A stretch of 64,000 nucleotides of DNA, taken from sequence record MN642089.1; one strand, 5' to 3'. The DNA comes from Klebsiella phage N1M2. Each line of letters begins with the position of its first letter. Within the stretch, counting starts at the first letter, position 1. The position numbers and the translations under genes were made by a program. Positions 6,766 through 49,720 of this stretch are shown piece by piece. Under the pieces are notes generated by a model. That model saw only the letters and a program-made list of their open reading frames with translations. It ran no database searches and was not told the origin of the DNA.

Positions 6766-7125
6766 ATGAGTAAGAAAAGTTATCTCCCAGAATCAATCAA
6801 CGCCAATGAAATTGATTGGACTGGTGCTAAAAACCTTGATCTGTCTACAGCCACTTTAGAGGTCAGGAATGGTTTAGCTAAACTGACTATCAAAGGTCAT
6901 GCTTTCCATTTTGAAAAGATTCCTATGCCGATTGATTGGGCTGGTTTCCAATACGGTATTAAAGACCGTGAACCACAACCCATTCATCGGGATACCGATT
7001 ATATACGGGAAGGTTATCTGGACACTCGTAGTTTCGGTAATAAGTTCATCATCAACTTCATTACCGATAATCGCAGTGAGCGACCATTTGTTATTCGTGT
7101 AGGAGACGTTAATGCCAAATGTTAA
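6766..7125 (+). CDS. hypothetical protein
   Basis: 119-aa ORF. Confidence 0.5.
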   Translation: MSKKSYLPESINANEIDWTGAKNLDLSTATLEVRNGLAKLTIKGHAFHFEKIPMPIDWAGFQYGIKDREPQPIHRDTDYIREGYLDTRSFGNKFIINFITDNRSERPFVIRVGDVNAKC

Positions 7126-7453
7126 AGAGCTAGATTTCTTTCGCATGAAGTTGCAGAATAATAAAGCTGCAGCTTTCTATGTGCGTGATGGTAAGGCATT
7201 CTATTATGTCGGTCCTGATCGTTTCGATGTTGACTCTGCGGCTAATGCTGTTAATTACGGTAAGAAAGCTCTGGAAGAGAATTTCGATTACGATGAAGAA
7301 TTCAAAACAATGGATCTGTCAAAAGACTTATTGCTTAAAGGCAAAATGAATCTGTTGCAGATTCAAGAATACTTCATATTGATGTTTATCGATTCCAGTA
7401 AACAACATTGTCCTATTGTGATTCGTGCTGGAAATGCTTTGGAGAACTTATGA
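7112..7453 (+). CDS. hypothetical protein
   Basis: 113-aa ORF. Confidence 0.5.
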   Translation: MPNVKELDFFRMKLQNNKAAAFYVRDGKAFYYVGPDRFDVDSAANAVNYGKKALEENFDYDEEFKTMDLSKDLLLKGKMNLLQIQEYFILMFIDSSKQHCPIVIRAGNALENL

Positions 7454-7734
7454 TTAAAAAGTATAAACTTATTTGGGTGTACATTGTAGCCGGGTTATCT
7501 GTGTTAGCTCTCCTGGCAACCACAATGAGTTGGTTAGAAAAAGAACCCAATCGTAAACTGGAGCAATTGGGTTATTCCCAGGTAAAGATCTTAGGAACTA
7601 CACCTGGTTGTAAAGATGGTCGAGGTTATACATTCGTAGCCACTGGTCCTACTGGAGGGTATCGGGTTGGTGTACTGTGTATTTACCAAGATCATTTATC
7701 TGTGACCATTACTGGTCGTCGTAACTTTAATTAA
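7450..7734 (+). CDS. membrane protein (start moved to ATG 7450, RBS GGAGAA)
   Basis: MIKKYKLIWVYIVAGLSVLALLATT is an N-terminal TM segment. The ORF-track start at 7408 lacks an RBS. Confidence 0.45.
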   Translation: MIKKYKLIWVYIVAGLSVLALLATTMSWLEKEPNRKLEQLGYSQVKILGTTPGCKDGRGYTFVATGPTGGYRVGVLCIYQDHLSVTITGRRNFN

Positions 7735-7744
7735 GGAATGAATT

Positions 7745-8203
7745 ATGTTTAAAGCAATCATCAATGGTATCAAATGGTTCTTCGGTCAGCCAGAAGAAGA
7801 GAAACAAAAACTGGCACGTAAACATCGTCACGCTACTTTTAATCCAGCTACTAAAACTGGCCCCGTTAAAGTACGTGGTATTCCAACCATCCCTGATGAA
7901 GGTACTGGGATCAAGGATAGTTACATGAAGTTGGTTGAAATGGCGGGTATTGACGAATCCCTGGTAATCGAAGAAGCTAAGGCTCGTATTCTGATGCCTA
8001 TGGATTTCTCTGATCGCCATATTGAACATGCCCTGCAATGTTGCGGTTTCCAAAAGGAACCTAAACGTTCAGGCGGTATGGCATACGACCCTCGTTTGAT
8101 TCAAGCAGTTAAACTGAGTGTCAATATGTATTCTACCGGTGTTCAGACTCGCATTGAGGAAGTCCAGAAGAGACTGGAAGAAGCTCTCAAAGAAGATGAA
8201 TAA
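7745..8203 (+). CDS. hypothetical protein
   Basis: 152-aa ORF. RBS aaggaatgaattATG. Confidence 0.55.
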   Translation: MFKAIINGIKWFFGQPEEEKQKLARKHRHATFNPATKTGPVKVRGIPTIPDEGTGIKDSYMKLVEMAGIDESLVIEEAKARILMPMDFSDRHIEHALQCCGFQKEPKRSGGMAYDPRLIQAVKLSVNMYSTGVQTRIEEVQKRLEEALKEDE

Positions 8204-8281
8204 CTACCTTCGTTAAACTAAACTAGAAAATGAATCAGGTGTCCAGAAATGGATGCCTGATTTGTTAGGAGTTATTTATTT

Positions 8282-31500: not shown

Positions 31501-32706
31501 ACCTTCGTTATATACAAACTCAGCGGTATAGAGCCCACCGACTTGTTCAACGGTGTTCGGGAAGTTAGTGCTTAAATGACCTTCATAGATCATCGCGTCA
31601 TTTTCATCCCAGGTAGTAAACTTCATTGCACCGAAGTTACCTTGCTGGAGTAACGCAGATGGAGGAGCACTAATTCTTACCTTATTGCCTTTATAGAAAG
31701 CAGTGATCTTAACCTGTACATCTGAACCTGATGGCGCGGTAACGGTTTCTGGATCAATTACGAAAGTAAGATCGAAACTGTTATCCTTTTCGATAACCAC
31801 ATTGATTCTGAACGTTTTCTTAACAGGTCGACCTTGCCACATATAAGTGACACGCACGATGATCTCATCACGGACTTCTTTTTCAGAAGAACCATAAATG
31901 GTTTCACCAATGATGAAGTTTCCGTCTTCAGAACGTTTAGGAATGGTGTAACCAGAACCAGTACTGATTTCGATCAAAGCTTCATGTGTGATGTCAATAG
32001 TGGTGTTGAACCAATAGGTATTTGGAATACTGAAGTCTTTACCACGCTGGGTCGTAATGGACTCAGGAAGGTTAGAAGTAATTCCAGGAACATTGGCTTC
32101 ATCCAGAACTAATTCATAAATGAATAGTGGATAGGTTCCAGTACCAAATGAAGCATCAGTGATTTTAACTGTACCTGATTCGAGAGTATCGTAATCAATG
32201 AAAGTTAAAGATTCACGAGAGGTAACGTATTCATTAAAGAACAAATCACCAAAGGCAGCCATTGGACCACTGATGGTTTTTGCTTCTTCTTGAGAAAGCA
32301 GAACACCATAGTTATTAAGCCACTTACACCACAGTAAACCGTGATCTACTTTGTTGGCTTTAACGTAAGCTTTCAAGTTATCCAGGTCTTCGATCTCGAT
32401 CAATGGAACGGCGAAGTCTTCCAGGATATCTTTCATTTGTACACGAGTGATGTCGACGTCAACACGTGCAAAACCGGTTTTGCGCGCTGTAAAGCAAACG
32501 CGAGTAATACCATCAGGGAAAGCAACTGGGTTCTCAATAACTAAGTCACCAGCAACCAAACCTGTGTAACGTTCTTTAGCTAACGCCAACTCATCTTCAG
32601 GTCCTTCAACCTCAAGACGTTTTATACGTTCTTTCAAGAAACGTTCTACTGGTGTGTATAACGGATCGTTAATACACTTTTTGTTAATCTTAATTTGCTC
32701 TGCCAT
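22579..32706 (-). CDS. giant structural fibre/adhesin-like protein with tandem Ig-like domains, 3375 aa
   Basis: 10.1-kb uninterrupted ORF. AAGAGG RBS. Many ~90-110 aa beta-rich repeats. The N-terminal ~200 aa has a standalone paralog at 44725..45330. Confidence 0.75.
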   Translation of the reverse strand: MAEQIKINKKCINDPLYTPVERFLKERIKRLEVEGPEDELALAKERYTGLVAGDLVIENPVAFPDGITRVCFTARKTGFARVDVDITRVQMKDILEDFAVPLIEIEDLDNLKAYVKANKVDHGLLWCKWLNNYGVLLSQEEAKTISGPMAAFGDLFFNEYVTSRESLTFIDYDTLESGTVKITDASFGTGTYPLFIYELVLDEANVPGITSNLPESITTQRGKDFSIPNTYWFNTTIDITHEALIEISTGSGYTIPKRSEDGNFIIGETIYGSSEKEVRDEIIVRVTYMWQGRPVKKTFRINVVIEKDNSFDLTFVIDPETVTAPSGSDVQVKITAFYKGNKVRISAPPSALLQQGNFGAMKFTTWDENDAMIYEGHLSTNFPNTVEQVGGLYTAEFVYNEGDITSKAPAYVNVVLTRPDTGPKFEIRSFPAVIRGHKGDKGLLTVGAFYNDEPISPTDLDIRTGKKGEKELIEYNSVDQLGVNYTIIKDANKPGEEIEDDYDQVFRWIAPTGVRYVITRKVRVIVAQVSTVELVPVLSNPLVVNKYQFGDYPFKLIVNGVDVTKKISDYTFEDEKGFIIPKKGNADQWFVGNAPDVPAPAESTTVPFKFRYTIDGVWRQFTYDQTFNVNAWEQDPGTTEPGINTKTVAVPSSALIDGLSDETGYFEFQVYHLSEDITATAEIMKDKLVTPAGITFNSFVYIEERNVIRANYSKLQPTTEPGKVYIQRPGIEDPKPEDIALVHVSTDVKQSRVLVLKDYDKETTVEVGGSSALAKITLTFAGKVVPLTDPNLTYKRTDKSNVRIVDVKDNGVEVVDNVWEYIGETRQSGLELEYIYTDPRDGKQTNVKFTLPVFTVYPEMRLEGTPAAPIDAAIWDTGLLPFTLMAGNTNWTGAITSVKSIQDNEYIAFNKLNWEVIWAEKEATTITIPLEIKWTVGKAKDRKFITEVVFNLEPWDQITFGGDWEPKSIKADSRTNGTITGNFVYKGKPANADVVVDKAASTIPETFIMGVSSNVDGEGVVIGYETTRGGDYLMTLIYRHTPSGRTIQADIPTEIAWPHELNLVKITPSVKGIWNAEATIELVYNWDGIPLTLNDPKLKLTATSGDGEPVELVKINDESLTVKLAKGGEKGEDYDYDFKINVEYVDPNGKTWTNENTVPVVIHIPDVRIGANPSFNVNVWDRGVVGITLVDDQGRPVPIESLTPRGTNPYITFTEPNKWYVTGGSQSTSITTTLRLSAQYSMGGNTYQMDTETDFNIAKYDGKKFVITEGPEEVEGKAGTPGTMKFRFKYAGDVAKNVSIDLGKSTIPKNIVLGEITPDGDVPYTLLGQAEDTLRLVFVRENATNPPVVNDDYAVAVVKVITQSSDEVFTVESKTPAITIPWMETATIVLALKYGEYGIPGNTPGLKYELVDNGKAHSIRIVGGVSNGVVIQAIRSNVSEALTVYPEDIKVTYEVGAPAPKEGTISTQVSIQMGKVEITNNDPINGKIWDRGSFTQGIKMGDNPLNTVQGYKTNEPDNQWVEFIAPRGWEIIGAEKVQSDKTIKMQVLYKVDEVPEVQSLEFDATFRIQGAQDTTRFKCTVTPNKLETAVGEQNTLKVRPIYKDKEVGASATFKPELSTFPKSVKYVSSSMDGVDFVLTFEGVEAGLGEMDLVFWSPAAGTDPAPYDVWTGKVPTKVMGELGVEIGDRDNLLTGKDGDTGEYKLQILFGGIPIDAKQEMANGSLRVTVEKGEGASPNAGVLSIGSWESESFNYSLAGVVAPGREITVSDFINITYTYGGNNYSRRVEIPELYTSAPVVVVPRSPVACKMFDTQSLGIGSATCGDVSLTASSLPAPAESGWMNCELDEEQPNGYITVSLRSFTVVKADETNKSLTLKMIYNGIYRNWTWKGEADVVFNIAAWNQRTLESFWMHRNPPEHYPDNTYPLVMEVGDVTTVDMQTVYKLIPNFNNTDIIDYLETDFRDAMDIEFTGPIGGGSEARARYSVTPTKEFKGDIKLILRRPGGAKPGVEFLDWCSLVIGADFKQPPLLVTGWNAGLKGGNGDKGNMPLRVTLRGRNILLDNPDLKITLDPDDIIKITGSNQTQYQYEVIAPIDAELGKREIKVSLSYTDPNTGTTHTGEYTQPFEIVVPADYPVITPIRVSVEPFNRVRGPQIFKVMVGGTDLTTQCTPVSMETLDADAQGILIIPDDENPNKDWMWCIDNYIGNTGNHNVRTSWVIEVPFRGSTIQIPDVELTTLVASRPTHAGWIQGTGAPNPFELTKDKEGELRFKMTNRGLPTTALTLNQEQTQNSAFFEVLSVEPDGDELVVKYKGLNSFFAVFNFVWDVVGYDGTNDLHQRGKVQLKAFQGPRLEPNTDPVDVDIWGKFTPFKVFSGETDITTQCSITAISSNYFEAGPSATVQCINADPTPKTVEVEFTYSTPASTGNVVLTGKITVNISAWDGIEFWGEPVNKNGVSAPVITEEGDGFVINIPFTNNFYTFFFRAMLKNKTYPIGTNRSGYSTINRIESEDPTAIHWTSGGGSNANEVSVRVIPDKLGKYKGKVPLQYNGTEANGPNGYPAGTPGKNFDNMPVIWNMFEDKITFREGFVPEPIIVPAGSTTVVDVPCDLVWGALAVNLNLTNEVISVGLTHDLGIATLFGASNVQGTNRFNWTAKSYKISPAAVKPGATDVTSYFTFNIRFKNPNNNKEYTFSYDQPIIFKAKEGATDPVLTVTDVQEVNTSVWKKNTGLPFKLAIDGVDYPADTSSVTNIKAADKDKDWLEMGPKLTDGYTVIDGEPEATTKTGTFIVTVVQGPRVWEIEQDVVFNIEGYDGQALSFKFNNPSQFNNGIMGQTNAIFRGTVSGEYRKVAISDYSLFEIDSARSKLPGFAENIYNQGPDNNSKNIYFNWQALATDMKEPQEGYLCVGLKSRMYLPDAVEGVDFTYVKVPVQTYYVDGYYLISADPEEFTGQFGGPVMRMDVKYRKGIDEARILSTDFNRAVFTPNVVTTTYIAGGYFQFKFANDIDVGELTSDVVAAWNKDTNIPPDRQLKIPFKVTQVSTVPKPTVTNLTSEITAHINESGPLPFKLDWKGNDVTDQISAVRISDNSYVSIKDKGWVISHADVQTTKVMPTFEVDITLDNVTFTIKQEVTFTVYGYNGKEINATADDVILMTGEQGFITIKGDYSGEPLVGNVTFDKSSSISIPAGLITFGNMSPGSDGTLVIKVTGGNVGNGDLKIRLKSVHDTGNGNIGSDYIDLRPKVEILPTELTPASGFQTTGTGNYYELPTLIQSVLLGSTALANTDENLIIQIVDYPAVTIGTLSDKTIGYKFTNDSTEEVIHKFKLKFTYKGRSEYIVDITLTQSASPTTPYVTDITQIDVEYSKSYAAPFKVISPR

Positions 32707-35714: not shown

Positions 35715-36452
35715 TTAAGGTTCTATAACTAACGTGGTTCTGACACTACGTGAGCTGCATTTAACATCGGCATTACTAAACCATACTTCATAGTTAGTGC
35801 TGCTTTTGTTAGCAACATATGTGGTAAAGGTCACTGTTTTCTCATCAATGATCTTAGCGTCTCTGATCCAGTTAAATGTATTGGATCTCCCAGCAGCCTC
35901 ACTATACGTATAGTCTCGTTGTACAACCAACTTGTCTGATGTTATACCATCCTCAGGAAGTTTGACTGTCCACACCCCCAGGTTTCTTTCTTTGTCATAG
36001 ACAACTGAAACTTCGCCTGGGCCAACAGGAATATAATCGAATTCTGTTCTAGACGTATACTCAACACCGTCAGCTAATATAACTATATTAGTGGCCGCGC
36101 TATCTGGCTTATTGACGATATTTATATGAGCACGCAGACTGGTTTCTCCAAAGAGACCGTTTTCTCTCTTCCTTATTTTTAACGGACCAGTACCGCCCCA
36201 GATACCGGGCTCAAATCCTTTTACTTCCCACTCATTAATATAGGTAGTATTCCCTTTCTCATCAATGACTCTGAATGTTCCAAGTACTGAAGATTTGACC
36301 ATGTTATCCCATTCGGTAACTAGTTGGTTACCTCCTGTATACCCATAGCGCTGTTCAAATAAGATTGCAGGTCTACCCATATAACCATTGACCGCTCCAA
36401 ATGAAAATAATAACTGTTTTAAGTCAACAATGTGACCATAGGATCCGAACAT
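35715..36452 (-). CDS. structural-module protein, 245 aa
   Basis: First gene of the minus-strand structural run. Preceded by a UUCG hairpin. Confidence 0.55.
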   Translation of the reverse strand: MFGSYGHIVDLKQLLFSFGAVNGYMGRPAILFEQRYGYTGGNQLVTEWDNMVKSSVLGTFRVIDEKGNTTYINEWEVKGFEPGIWGGTGPLKIRKRENGLFGETSLRAHINIVNKPDSAATNIVILADGVEYTSRTEFDYIPVGPGEVSVVYDKERNLGVWTVKLPEDGITSDKLVVQRDYTYSEAAGRSNTFNWIRDAKIIDEKTVTFTTYVANKSSTNYEVWFSNADVKCSSRSVRTTLVIEP

Positions 36453-36453
36453 A

Positions 36454-36481
36454 GAGTAGGGTGGCTTCGGCCACCCTACTC
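36454..36481 (-). terminator. hairpin GAGTAGGGTGGC-TTCG-GCCACCCTACTC (UUCG tetraloop)
   Basis: Perfect 12-bp stem between the HNH stop (36495) and the 245-aa gene start (36452). Confidence 0.55.
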
Positions 36482-36494
36482 ATTATGATCTTAA

Positions 36495-37310
36495 TTAAAG
36501 TTCGAAGTCATTGAATGCGCCTTCTGCAACATTGGAATCGATTTGACCTACCAGGTAAGAACTAACCAAAGATTGTTTATCATGGGAGAAAGCCCAGCCA
36601 TTAACAATCTTCTTTCCATTAGATTTTAGAGCACGCCCTATCGATCTCCTAGATATTCCCAAGATTCCAGCACATTCATGGCTCGATTTGAATAACACGA
36701 GTTCAGTCCTGTCACTTATCTCAAGACCATAGAACATTTTACTTGTTCTGGTTCCGCTGTTATTAACTGAAAGTCCCTCTAATGTTATTTTCCATGTGTG
36801 GTCTAATAAAGTATCTTTATATTTATTGACAATCATTGTGCCTGAGACATTGGGAGTTCCAGCCCATCTTGATAGTTCTCGCAGAGAGTGTAGAGTGATG
36901 ACTTTTCCTGTCTTTACATTCTCTATCTTTATATGTTGGCTTGCTTTATTAAGTCCTGTCTTATATGCATGGAAGATGTTATCTGAATTGGTAGTCCATT
37001 CAAGATTGCTCTTAGTGCAGTCTAATTTATTACCATTAATGTGATTACAAGTTATTAGTTTGCAACCTTCTGGAAGATCTGGCCTTGGGCCATTAAATAT
37101 GGAACACACGGTGACATGAATAGTTATATAAGCCTGAACACCATAATCAGAGACGAGATTAACTGAACGATATCCATTACGGAGAAGGTCTTTCATTTTA
37201 AATTGGTCTTTCTTTCTCCTAACATCACCATTTTCATTTATCTCATAATTAGAGAACCCAGGTATGATTATCCAATTATCTTTATTATCCATGAATACCT
37301 CATGCCCCAT
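36495..37310 (-). CDS. HNH homing endonuclease (NUMOD4-like N-term) with C-terminal NrdB-tail duplication
   Basis: WIIIPGFSNYEINENGDVRR is the NUMOD4-like segment. CNHINGNKLDCTKSNLEWTTNSDN is the HNH motif. The last 26 aa ([22 protein letters not shown]) mirror the NrdB C-terminus. Confidence 0.8.
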   Translation of the reverse strand: MGHEVFMDNKDNWIIIPGFSNYEINENGDVRRKKDQFKMKDLLRNGYRSVNLVSDYGVQAYITIHVTVCSIFNGPRPDLPEGCKLITCNHINGNKLDCTKSNLEWTTNSDNIFHAYKTGLNKASQHIKIENVKTGKVITLHSLRELSRWAGTPNVSGTMIVNKYKDTLLDHTWKITLEGLSVNNSGTRTSKMFYGLEISDRTELVLFKSSHECAGILGISRRSIGRALKSNGKKIVNGWAFSHDKQSLVSSYLVGQIDSNVAEGAFNDFEL

Positions 37311-37332
37311 TTACCCAATTGGGTAAATGGGG
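37305..37332 (-). promoter_or_regulatory. 28-nt perfect palindrome CCCCATTTACCCAATTGGGTAAATGGGG enclosing the HNH start codon (translational sequestration hairpin)
   Basis: Read directly from the sequence. AUG lies in the 3' arm of a 12-bp stem with an AAUU loop. Confidence 0.6.
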
Positions 37333-37343
37333 ATGTTGTTTAT

Positions 37344-38489
37344 TTACAGACTAAAATCCGCAAAGTCATCAGTGTCGACTGTTGAATCAATTTGCCCCAC
37401 AAGATAGGAGCTGATCTCAGCCTCCTGTGGGGCCACCTGAACGTTGTCAGACACCAACCAGGAGTTAATCCATGGGATTGGGTTAGTGGTAGTTGTAAAT
37501 GGCATACCGAGCCCGATAGCGTTCATACGGATGTTCGCAATGTATTCAACATACTGGCACAGGATCGGCTCTGACAGACCAATCATAGAACCATCTTTAA
37601 ACAGGTATGCTGCCCATTCTTTTTCTTGCTGTACAACTTCCAAGAACATGTCGATTGATTCTTGTTTGCATTCTTCAGCAATTTCAGCCATCTCTGGATC
37701 ATCAGCACCATTTGCAAACAGATTCAGGATATGCTGAGTGCCAGTAAGGTGGAGAGCCTCATCACGTGCGATGAGTTTGATGATCTTAGCATTACCTTCC
37801 ATCAGCTTACGTTCTGCGAATGCAAACGAGCAAGCGAATGATACATAGAAACGAATAGCTTCCAGGGCGTTAACTGATTGAATACACAGATAAAGCGCTT
37901 TCTTAATCTCACGCAGGGTAACGACAACACGTTTACCATTAACAGTGTGAGTACCTTCACCCAGGTAATAATACTGCTGGGTTAAAGCAATCAGTTTATC
38001 GTAGTAACGGGACACCGCACCAGCACGACGGGTGATGTGTTCGTTATCCACAACATCTTCAAACACGATAGAAGGATCGTTAACGATGTTACGGATGATG
38101 TGGGTATAGGAACGAGAGTGAATCGTTTCTGAGAAGCCCCAGGTCTCTGCCCATGTTTCCAGTTCTGGAATACTGATAATCGGAAGGAAGGCTACGTTAG
38201 GCCCACGACCCTGTACGGAATCCAGAAGCGTCTGATATTTGAGGTTACTGATGAAGATATGCTTTTCATGTTCCGGAAGGTTCATGTAGTCAATACGGTC
38301 ACGAGTAACGTCAACTTCTTCAGGACGCCAGAAGAAAGACAGTTGCTTTTCAATAAGCTTTTCAAAGATACCGTGCTTTTGTTGGTCATAACGAGAAACG
38401 TTAACGTTCTGACCCATGAACATGTGTTCTAACAGTTGGTTGTTTTTATTTTGGTTAAAAGTTGAATAGCCGGACATGTTTAACTCCAA
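37344..38489 (-). CDS. nrdB: ribonucleotide reductase class Ia beta subunit
   Basis: 381 aa. Near-colinear high identity to enterobacterial NrdB, recalled from memory ([54 protein letters not shown]-terminal [20 protein letters not shown]). Confidence 0.9.
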
Positions 38490-38700: not shown

Positions 38701-38730
38701 CTTTTCAGGTAGATATTATTAAAGTGAAGT
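38701..38730 (+). promoter_or_regulatory. early promoter-like motif (CTTTTCAGGTAGATATTATTAAAGTGAAG)
   Basis: Near-identical to the copy at 49691-49720. 50 bp upstream of 38781. Confidence 0.5.
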
Positions 38731-44724: not shown

Positions 44725-45330
44725 TTATGCTATCGCTTTCAAATCTTCAATGAAGAACATCAAGCCCTGGGTTGGATCGATGTTTATTGCTTCAACAGTA
44801 AACGTGCCTGAATGTTTACCAGTTGGATCAATGGCGTCTAGTTTATTGGTAACGATCTTATCCCAATAAATATTACCCATTATTTTCATTACACCATCTG
44901 GATTACCTTGCTCCGCTTCTGAAACAACACCATACTTATTGCTATCAGTTAACAGTACAATACCGGCTTGTTGTGTTCCGGCTTTAACTGCTGCGATCAG
45001 ATCGTCTACTTTAGCATACTCAGTGACAGTTACTGAGAATTCTTCTAAGATAGGTTTGATGGTTACTTTTTCAACTTCGATATCTGCACGGAAGAAACCA
45101 GTCTTACGAGAAAGGAAGCAACAACGGACAATGCCACTGTTGAAAGAAACCGGAGGTTCGATCATCACATCTTCGTGACGTAAACCATCATAACGTTGTT
45201 TGGCTAAGTCTAACTCTGCGCTTGGACCCGCTGCCTCTAGTTTAGCGATACGATCAACCATAAACTTTCGGGCAGACAGGAACACAGGGTCATTTATCTT
45301 TTTGCTATTGATACCTGAAACAGTGATCAT
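44725..45330 (-). CDS. standalone paralog of the N-terminal ~200-aa domain of the 3375-aa giant protein
   Basis: INSKKINDPVFLSARKFMVDRIAKLEAAGPSAELDLAKQRYDGL...RKTGFFRADIEVEKV aligns with INKKCINDPLYTPVERFLKERIKRLEVEGPEDELALAKERYTGL...RKTGFARVDVDITRV. Confidence 0.6.
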   Translation of the reverse strand: MITVSGINSKKINDPVFLSARKFMVDRIAKLEAAGPSAELDLAKQRYDGLRHEDVMIEPPVSFNSGIVRCCFLSRKTGFFRADIEVEKVTIKPILEEFSVTVTEYAKVDDLIAAVKAGTQQAGIVLLTDSNKYGVVSEAEQGNPDGVMKIMGNIYWDKIVTNKLDAIDPTGKHSGTFTVEAINIDPTQGLMFFIEDLKAIA

Positions 45331-49690: not shown

Positions 49691-49720
49691 TCTTTTCAGA
49701 CATATATAATTAAAGTGTAT
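49691..49720 (+). promoter_or_regulatory. early promoter-like motif (TCTTTTCAGACATATATAATTAAAGTGTAT) with TTGTAT -35-like element
   Basis: TTGTAT, then 15 nt, then TATAAT. Motif family. Confidence 0.55.

Follow-up and report, generated by a model that had tools for sequence, protein, structure and literature searches.

We analyzed a window of 64,000 nucleotides (nt) from the genome of Klebsiella phage N1M2 (sequence record MN642089.1), in which nrdB, encoding the small subunit (R2) of class Ia ribonucleotide reductase (RNR), is followed on the minus strand by N1M2_165, a gene published as hypothetical. The host-like orphan nrdB is itself mostly ordinary. What is new is a homing endonuclease gene (HEG) that cuts into the end of nrdB, supplies a replacement for that end, and reads into the displaced ending. 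The locus comprises the following features.

37344..38477, minus strand: nrdB (N1M2 ORF166), class Ia RNR beta subunit, 377 amino acids from its ATG.
37344..37412, minus strand: copy A, the imported nrdB tail (codons S354 to stop) in use by NrdB, recognized by its divergence from Serratia phage Yubaba.
37395..37406, minus strand: 'tat ctt gtg ggg' at codons Y356-L-V-G359, a signature of synonymous changes and the predicted immunised target of the endonuclease.
37305..37332, minus strand: 12-bp hairpin between the nrdB stop and the HEG start (-26.9 kcal/mol, z = -4.9), also found by a terminator scan.
37298..37301, minus strand: GAGG Shine-Dalgarno sequence of the HEG, 5 nt 5' of the ATG at 37292, read from the sequence.
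36495..37292, minus strand: N1M2_165, putative free-standing HNH HEG, 265 amino acids, with matches to HNH_3, NUMOD4 (below the Pfam threshold) and I-HmuI.
36564-37292, minus strand: HEG core; the last 22-23 codons of the gene are displaced nrdB tail.
36495..36563, minus strand: copy B, the displaced native nrdB tail, forming the in-frame C-terminus of the HEG and recognized by its likeness to the Yubaba tail.
36454..36481, minus strand: native post-nrdB hairpin (-27.3 kcal/mol, z = -5.85), directly before the start codon (36452) of the following gene.

The mechanically called open reading frame (ORF) at 37344..38489 on the minus strand matches the Pfam family Ribonuc_red_sm (PF00268; E = 1.3e-46, residues 38-337). 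Its product aligns with NrdB of Escherichia coli K-12 over 376 residues without a gap and with 78.2% identity, close to the near-colinear protein of about 80% identity to enterobacterial NrdB that the initial annotation had described; identity to the NrdB proteins of Yubaba and Pseudomonas phage OBP is 91.8% and 82.5%, respectively. The gene is intact, as had been supposed, but the 381 amino acids first assigned to it likely reduce to 377, counted from the ATG at 38477 (MSGYSTF...) that matches the Yubaba and OBP starts. Every ORF of N1M2 is reported to begin with AUG (PMC7058600). The TTG at 38489, four codons 5' of the conserved ATG, is probably not used as a start, and the 12 nt from 38478 to 38489 on the minus strand, although inside the mechanical ORF, are probably untranslated.

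The ten residues compared with the E. coli enzyme were all identical at the aligned positions (10/10); these are the diiron ligands D84, E115, H118, E204, E238, and H241, the radical-bearing Y122, and the transfer residues W48, D237, and Y356. Also retained is the C-terminal pattern YLVGQIDS-x-V-x4-F-x2-F-x-L-stop, typical of the tail by which R2 binds the large subunit (R1). N1M2 nrdB is predicted, then, to encode an intact diiron-tyrosyl radical subunit of class Ia. Rather than standing at the end of the giant-fibre operon, where it had initially been placed, nrdB is the first gene of a minus-strand string running into the fibre genes, from which it is separated on that strand by a strong hairpin.

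An HNH endonuclease had also been noted beside nrdB, and the ORF at 36495..37310 on the minus strand indeed matches HNH_3, at 25.6 bits versus a cut-off of 24.8. The annotated protein of 265 amino acids, which begins at M7 of this mechanical ORF, is 100% identical to the public N1M2_165. Residues N83, H84, N96, N105, and H108 of the HNH motif are invariant in six members of the HEG family. The sole sequence match in the PDB is I-HmuI of Bacillus phage SPO1 (1U3E; residues 7-132 against 3-126, E = 0.0035), which shares the layout of an N-terminal module followed by HNH. I-HmuI is an intron-encoded nicking enzyme of only 174 amino acids, whereas the free-standing N1M2_165 has a C-terminal region that is longer and helix-turn-helix-like, with an NrdB tail at its end. 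The GC content at third codon positions (GC3) of the HEG is 0.313 versus 0.455 for nrdB. At the 3' end of nrdB, the HEG is present in N1M2 and in the related phage loci L095 and L096, and none was found there in Yubaba, Edwardsiella phage pEt-SU, OBP, or Kc263. Homologs of 72, 64, and 51% identity from a large protein database, and one of 46% from the phage collection, all lie directly 3' of a jumbo-phage nrdB. We identify N1M2_165 as a predicted free-standing homing endonuclease of a lineage specialized for the 3' end of jumbo-phage nrdB.

When nrdB was compared with its Yubaba counterpart in bins of 30 nt, DNA identity was mostly 76-96%, with three internal bins at 60-70% and the last two at 56-60%. 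Over the last 69 nt, copy A agrees with Yubaba at 41/69 positions and copy B at 51/69. The protein encoded by copy B has 18/22 residues as in the native tail of Yubaba and Sureiya, the latter also a Serratia phage (…SAVDEGAFDDFQL), and tblastn of the HEG against Yubaba nrdB gave E = 9e-8. Past copy B come the hairpin and the beginning of the following gene, in synteny with the sequence 3' of Yubaba nrdB, and the hairpin at 36454..36481 is positionally equivalent to the post-nrdB hairpin of both Yubaba and Sureiya. Because copy B and the DNA downstream match Yubaba, copy A diverges from it, and the HEG is missing in these relatives, we take copy A to be foreign and copy B to be native. Copy A further carries a signature, E(A/S)EI(S/T)SYLVGQIDS(T/S)V, common to the HEG-borne tails of L095, L096, and Erwinia phage Simmy50. 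The replacement tail, hairpin, and HEG are best interpreted as one mobile unit that inserted into the 3' terminus of nrdB and moved the native tail out of place; the divergence of that tail would mostly be older than the insertion. Clear nrdB homology in the HEG begins at the V/S-S-Y codons; similarity extending further into the HEG by tblastn (48-65 amino acids) was put down to chance alignment of the helix-turn-helix-like region.

An HEG lies directly 3' of nrdB at seven loci. L095 and L096 repeat the N1M2 arrangement, and in all three the in-frame fusion point is the same, with DKxxL of the HEG followed by (V)SSYLVGQID of the tail. Their HEGs are 64-72% identical, and their downstream tails differ, each being native to its own lineage. 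Outside the element, L096 is near-identical to Sureiya and Yubaba, which allowed the junctions to be placed at the base level. Identity ends at '…atc tcg tcc ta' and resumes past the HEG at 'tct tcc tac ctg gta ggt…', the junctions lying at the repeated tcNtccta, and it then runs through the native stop codon, the hairpin, and the next gene. The L096 remnant has 22/22 protein residues as in the Yubaba tail, and the aligned tail and downstream DNA also match. At L097 and L258/L259, the HEG keeps a C-terminus of its own, …DKLDLIKLINK followed by a stop, and there is no tail remnant; this end is truncated in the HEGs of N1M2, L095, and L096. Our reading is that the intergenic form of the HEG would be ancestral and that one illegitimate join at the cut site may have made the fused, tail-displacing form, which would then have spread with the displaced tail serving as right homology arm.

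In Simmy50 and its relatives, the HEG of 46% identity, the closest in the phage collection, stands directly 3' of an orphan nrdB, and from the stop codon of that HEG onward runs a second, out-of-frame nrdB tail. This remnant tail agrees with the tail of the congener Desertfox, whose nrdB has no HEG at its 3' end, at 66/69 nt, and the following 110 nt differ at one position, whereas the functional Simmy50 tail agrees at 48/69 nt. In our reading, the junction of the Erwinia phages is a second one that arose independently, again at nrdB codons V353/S354. Scanning IMG/VR for the HEG family returned only an Erwinia RAY-like contig and generic HNH domains. A motif screen of all 80 loci found the two-tail pattern in the RAY-like contig only. 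A separate scan of metagenomes yielded no close family members.

Two further observations concern the distribution of these elements. In Desertfox, a related HNH endonuclease, 38% identical to that of N1M2, lies directly upstream of nrdB (L012, 2495-3331), and with Simmy50 carrying its HEG downstream, either end of the gene has been colonized within the genus. In Sureiya, which has no 3' HEG, comparison with L096 and with window positions 37410-37421 showed the left-flank variant 'gct gag atc tcg' (A-E-I-S) that adjoins HEG-borne tails, followed by a native tail (L003, ~8265-8280). This is the pattern expected of recombination between copy A and copy B, and may be a scar of HEG loss or a short co-conversion tract.

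It could be argued that the duplication is a one-off scar of illegitimate recombination beside a generic and possibly dead HNH gene. The tail-displacing form probably did start as an illegitimate join, in keeping with the intergenic HEGs of L097 and L258 retaining the C-terminus that the fused HEGs have lost. We nevertheless consider a one-off scar unlikely, since three phages with HEGs as divergent as stated above and with different lineage-native tails share one fusion point, since in the Erwinia phages those nrdB codons hold a second junction that arose independently, and since the HNH motif residues are invariant across the six family members.

The codons just inside the junction carry what may be the mark of a homing target. 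The sequence 'tat ctt gtg ggg' was found in 5/5 distinct nrdB alleles with an adjoining HEG of the closer subfamily (N1M2, L095, L096, L097, and L258) and in 0/11 displaced copies or alleles without an HEG, where the reading is taY ctg/ttg gtN ggK. A Fisher test on the signature, computed for 4/4 versus 0/11, gave p = 7e-4, for sequences that are related and not independent. Both co-conversion, with the foreign tail traveling with the HEG, and polymorphism at the target are found. The four synonymous changes (tat ctt gtg ggg for tac ctg gta ggt) probably protect the tail from being cut again; changes placed right at the junction are what is usually seen in a self-resistant target. The cleavage site is predicted at V353/S354.

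The unit would home as follows. The endonuclease would nick or cut an HEG-less nrdB near codons V353-G359, and repair would copy the unit from the HEG-carrying genome with the nrdB body as left homology arm. NrdB function would be kept because the unit brings its own tail and stop codon. The native tail would be shifted downstream, to be read in frame as the HEG C-terminus in N1M2, L095, and L096, and could act as right homology arm in later homing. The NrdB tail borne by the HEG in these three phages might itself be functional, an R1-binding peptide docking the endonuclease on host NrdA, although we think this improbable. If true, docking could bring the HEG product near the machinery of nucleotide synthesis and replication; alternatively, the tail could act as a competitor of the NrdB made by an HEG-free phage infecting the same cell, a second advantage for the selfish element.

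The expression of the HEG appears to be held low. In 5/5 elements folded, the nrdB stop and the HEG start are separated by a strong hairpin (z -2.8 to -5.3), with the structure conserved and the sequence not, and that of L095 carries a U9 tract that makes it a full intrinsic terminator. These hairpins probably limit read-through from nrdB and would thereby keep the HEG at a low level, as for mobE of phage T4. The published early-promoter consensus of N1M2 and OBP, searched with up to 3 mismatches, gave 7 matches versus 0 expected. One exact match, at 38703-38726 on the plus strand, drives the genes divergent from nrdB, and no match facing nrdB was found in the window; a scan for sigma-70 promoters gave background level only. 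Exact or one-mismatch copies of the consensus also occur at 49694, 51916, and 55905, all on the plus strand.

Among phage genes, those for RNR are classic homing endonuclease targets. The closest counterpart in layout comes from fungal mitochondria, where elements termed mORFs consist of an inserted C-terminus, an endonuclease ORF, and the native C-terminus, at times in phase (PMC3630166). The architecture of these elements, in atp6 of Allomyces macrogynus and in atp6, atp9, cox2, and nad3 of Glomus, is identical to that of the N1M2 nrdB element. In both, it is the native remnant that resembles close relatives, and the copy in use has diverged, which for the phage elements is seen as 51/69 versus 41/69 in the window and as 66/69 versus 48/69 in Simmy50. 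The mORFs encode LAGLIDADG or GIY-YIG enzymes in organelles, whereas the N1M2 element has an HNH enzyme, resides in a bacteriophage, and replaces the R1-binding tail of an RNR subunit. Given this difference in enzyme and genome, the N1M2 element works like an mORF and is not one by descent, and gene-end replacement in phages and fungal mitochondria looks like a convergent strategy.

Among phages, MobE of T4 is a free-standing HNH HEG without a promoter of its own that relies on upstream transcription, is tuned by a terminator, and co-converts flanking markers (PMC2790892). Like N1M2_165, it is encoded beside nrdB, which it targets, but it lies between intact nrdA and nrdB genes and acts on the 5' region of nrdB without replacing or duplicating a gene end. 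A close sequence relationship between MobE and N1M2_165 was not detected. In Aeromonas phage Aeh1, insertion of mobE reportedly splits nrdA (PMC3045599). As in N1M2, an HEG there resides within RNR coding sequence and the enzyme is kept functional by sequence borne on the element. The Aeh1 nrdA is split into two polypeptides that reassemble, whereas nrdB of N1M2 stays whole by means of a substitute 3' end. We found no description of a gene-end-replacing HEG from a phage in the literature searched. As the N1M2 element indicates, an HEG that carries a spare 3' end can insert itself into the terminal coding sequence of an essential phage gene, with no need of an intron or intein. The piece swapped is the peptide that decides which large subunit R2 binds, and for this reason the traffic of the selfish element may shuffle the partner specificity of R2 among phages.

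That partner appears to be supplied by the host. The initial annotation had found no nrdA adjoining nrdB and suggested an R2 able to pair with host R1. E. coli NrdA and YfaE used as tblastn queries gave only noise (E ≥ 0.7) in the 64-kb window, upholding the first point. For the genome at large, E. coli NrdA had no match at E ≤ 1 in the complete genome of Yubaba (255,663 bp), in which no nrdA, nrdD, or nrdJ is annotated and no yfaE homolog was found by tblastn; N1M2 itself was covered through its published gene list, which names NrdB (ORF166), thymidylate synthase, dihydrofolate reductase, thymidine kinase, and glutaredoxin, with NrdA not among them (PMC7058600). At the nrdB locus, which is where they were inspected, OBP, pEt-SU, Kc263, Simmy50, and Desertfox likewise have no nrdA beside nrdB. 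The missing cognate nrdA defines the orphan status of the gene and leaves its membership in the NrdB family unaffected.

The window covers only a quarter of the N1M2 genome, and nrdA and nrdB are separated by mobile elements in many phages, so that N1M2 might have a large subunit of its own outside the window, in which case nrdB would not be an orphan. This is very unlikely in view of the gene list with NrdB and glutaredoxin and no NrdA, the results with the complete Yubaba genome, and a search of phages for NrdA in which no member of Petsuvirus, the genus of the nearest relatives, was among the 40 matches listed, all with at least 60% identity.

A phage R2 and host NrdA most likely form a hybrid enzyme, which is the best functional reading because the ten catalytic residues and the R1-binding tail pattern are conserved and Yubaba lacks nrdA. 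The phage R2 would join host NrdA, and the hybrid RNR would keep deoxynucleoside triphosphate synthesis running during infection. Most Chordopoxviruses likewise encode R2 only, and the viral R2 forms functional hybrids with host R1 via its C-terminal residues (PMC2900304). The poxviruses (vaccinia F4) thus resemble these jumbo phages in encoding the small RNR subunit alone; the poxvirus hybrid was shown experimentally, in a eukaryotic virus and host, whereas that of the jumbo phages is inferred. Many phiKZ-like jumbo phages have R2 without an adjoining nrdA, and the one relative checked genome-wide, Yubaba, has none.

The HNH ORF is flanked by two tails, and phage nrdB genes are known intron hosts, with a group I intron at R236/D237 in the nrdB of L097, L096, and Sureiya. 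The stretch spanning copy A and the HNH ORF might accordingly be a group I intron or be alternatively spliced, so that NrdB could end with either tail. No group I intron signal (RF00028) was found with Rfam in the 3' element, whether in the window or at L003, L005, L012, or L095-L097. This negative is meaningful because the same search detects the group I intron elsewhere in L097 nrdB (69.2 bits, E = 6e-16). Moreover, every element has a complete copy A with the conserved F-x-x-F-x-L stop pattern, although the DNA diverges by 20-38%, and a complete conserved tail and stop would be pointless if spliced out; the junction, which falls between tcc ta and c, is without the usual U of a 5' splice site and G of an intron end. 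Splicing is therefore a highly improbable explanation. The nrdB stop codon and a hairpin separate the HEG ORF from nrdB, and the HEG by all these signs lies in no intron or intein.

The inserts at R236/D237 were noted separately. They split nrdB inside an iron-ligand motif at 2240-2478 in L097, 1503-2438 in L096, and 6964-7866 in Sureiya (L003). The L097 insert is an ORF-less group I intron (the RF00028 match of 69.2 bits), while those of L096 and Sureiya are of ~0.9 kb with an HNH ORF of 219 amino acids, flanked in L096 by weak intron halves of ~19 bits each. The GenBank entry for Sureiya has two nrdB coding sequences and a 'winged helix-turn-helix DNA-binding protein'.

The likeness of nrdB to the host gene had been taken to suggest a recent transfer from host to phage, possibly assisted by the endonuclease. 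N1M2 belongs to the phiKZ-related jumbo phages, and among described phages OBP is its closest relative (PMC7058600). In the phage collection, the nearest genomes were those of Petsuvirus (Yubaba, Sureiya, and pEt-SU) and OBP. All four have nrdB at this locus, pointing away from a cluster of small genes and directly 5' of giant fibre genes. With tblastn against all phages, close relatives of NrdB were found in many phiKZ-like phages, at 92% identity in Sureiya and Yubaba, 83% in OBP and pEt-SU, 79% in Pantoea phage Survivor and Shewanella phage SXP01, 78% in Kc263, 75% in Erwinia phage AH04, and 72% in Agricanvirus. Bacterial NrdB proteins from 185,579 species, represented by one genome each, instead formed a flat plateau at 75-79% with 79% the best, and Enterobacterales (Yersinia, Klebsiella, Serratia, and Escherichia) were about as close as Pasteurellales (Haemophilus, 78%).

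In a neighbour-joining tree of 29 sequences, eight phage NrdB proteins split from all sampled bacteria with 200/200 bootstrap support; within this set, the bacterial proteins are 84-93% identical among themselves and 72-80% identical to those of the phages. The composition of nrdB is that of a phage gene, with GC of 0.441 and GC3 of 0.455, inside the range of other genes in the window, versus GC3 of 0.71 and 0.82 for the nrdB of Klebsiella and Serratia, and its synonymous codon choice is fitted better by a phage model than by an enterobacterial one. Nesting within a host clade, host-like composition, and patchy spread among phage relatives are all three lacking in nrdB. In OBP (L013, 5001-6388), a yfaE-like ferredoxin gene follows immediately after nrdB with overlapping stop and start codons, as in the nrdAB-yfaE operon of E. 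coli, which suggests that an ancestor of the phage clade captured part of such an operon long ago. We regard nrdB as in all likelihood a long-standing gene of the OBP-like, phiKZ-related jumbo phages, already annotated, that remains about 78% 'host-like' because NrdB is highly conserved; strong likeness to a host enzyme is not, on its own, a sign of recent transfer.

Recent capture from an enterobacterial host, perhaps helped by the endonuclease, is effectively refuted despite the gap-free 78% identity to E. coli NrdB and an OBP gene order that points to an ultimately bacterial origin, given the locus common to the genus and to a Pseudomonas phage, the phage/bacterial split, the 79% ceiling with Haemophilus at 78%, the phage-like GC3, and the absence of the HEG from most nrdB-bearing relatives. 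Of the assisted transfer that had been proposed, one part survives in altered form: the HEG did not bring nrdB, but it did import the foreign last ~23 codons.

These considerations indicated, with good though incomplete confidence, a two-layer account in which a long-standing nrdB of the clade, probably pairing with host R1, has had its tail swapped by an nrdB-specialized HEG. The layout of the locus, the occurrence of the HEG among relatives, the contrast of the two tails, the junctions to the base, the recurrence in other phages, and the lack of an intron are observed; cleavage and its site, immunity, control of expression, and the pairing with host R1 are deduced. Several points weigh against the account. 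The target site and immunity are predicted from polymorphism in ~16 phylogenetically non-independent sequences, and the NUMOD4 match falls below threshold. The label 'native' rests on Yubaba and Sureiya, which are ~15% divergent in DNA from N1M2 nrdB, and even copy B agrees with Yubaba at only 51/69 nt. The absence of nrdA from N1M2 outside the window rests on the published annotation (PMC7058600). Finally, OBP infects Pseudomonas yet keeps an enterobacterial-type R2, which is awkward for simple pairing with host R1 unless Pseudomonas NrdA accepts the OBP R2 or OBP carries an nrdA. The R2-only state of these phages, one of them a Pseudomonas phage with an enterobacterial-type R2 and a ferredoxin, turns the hybrid of phage R2 and host R1 into a specific proposal that can be tested. 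We consider the HEG element and the R2-only state to be moderately interesting and open to experiment.

The fibre module is variable right at the boundary of the nrdB-HEG unit. The first gene past the unit (35715-36452, minus strand) encodes 245 amino acids in N1M2 versus 1035 in Yubaba and L096, with similar starts (MFGSYGH versus MYGSYGH). Farther away, an ORF of 201 amino acids at 44725-45330 on the minus strand is paralogous to the first ~180 residues (region 32107-32706, minus strand) of the giant protein of 3375 amino acids (41% identity, E = 5e-44), and Yubaba is annotated with an equivalent gene of 201 amino acids.

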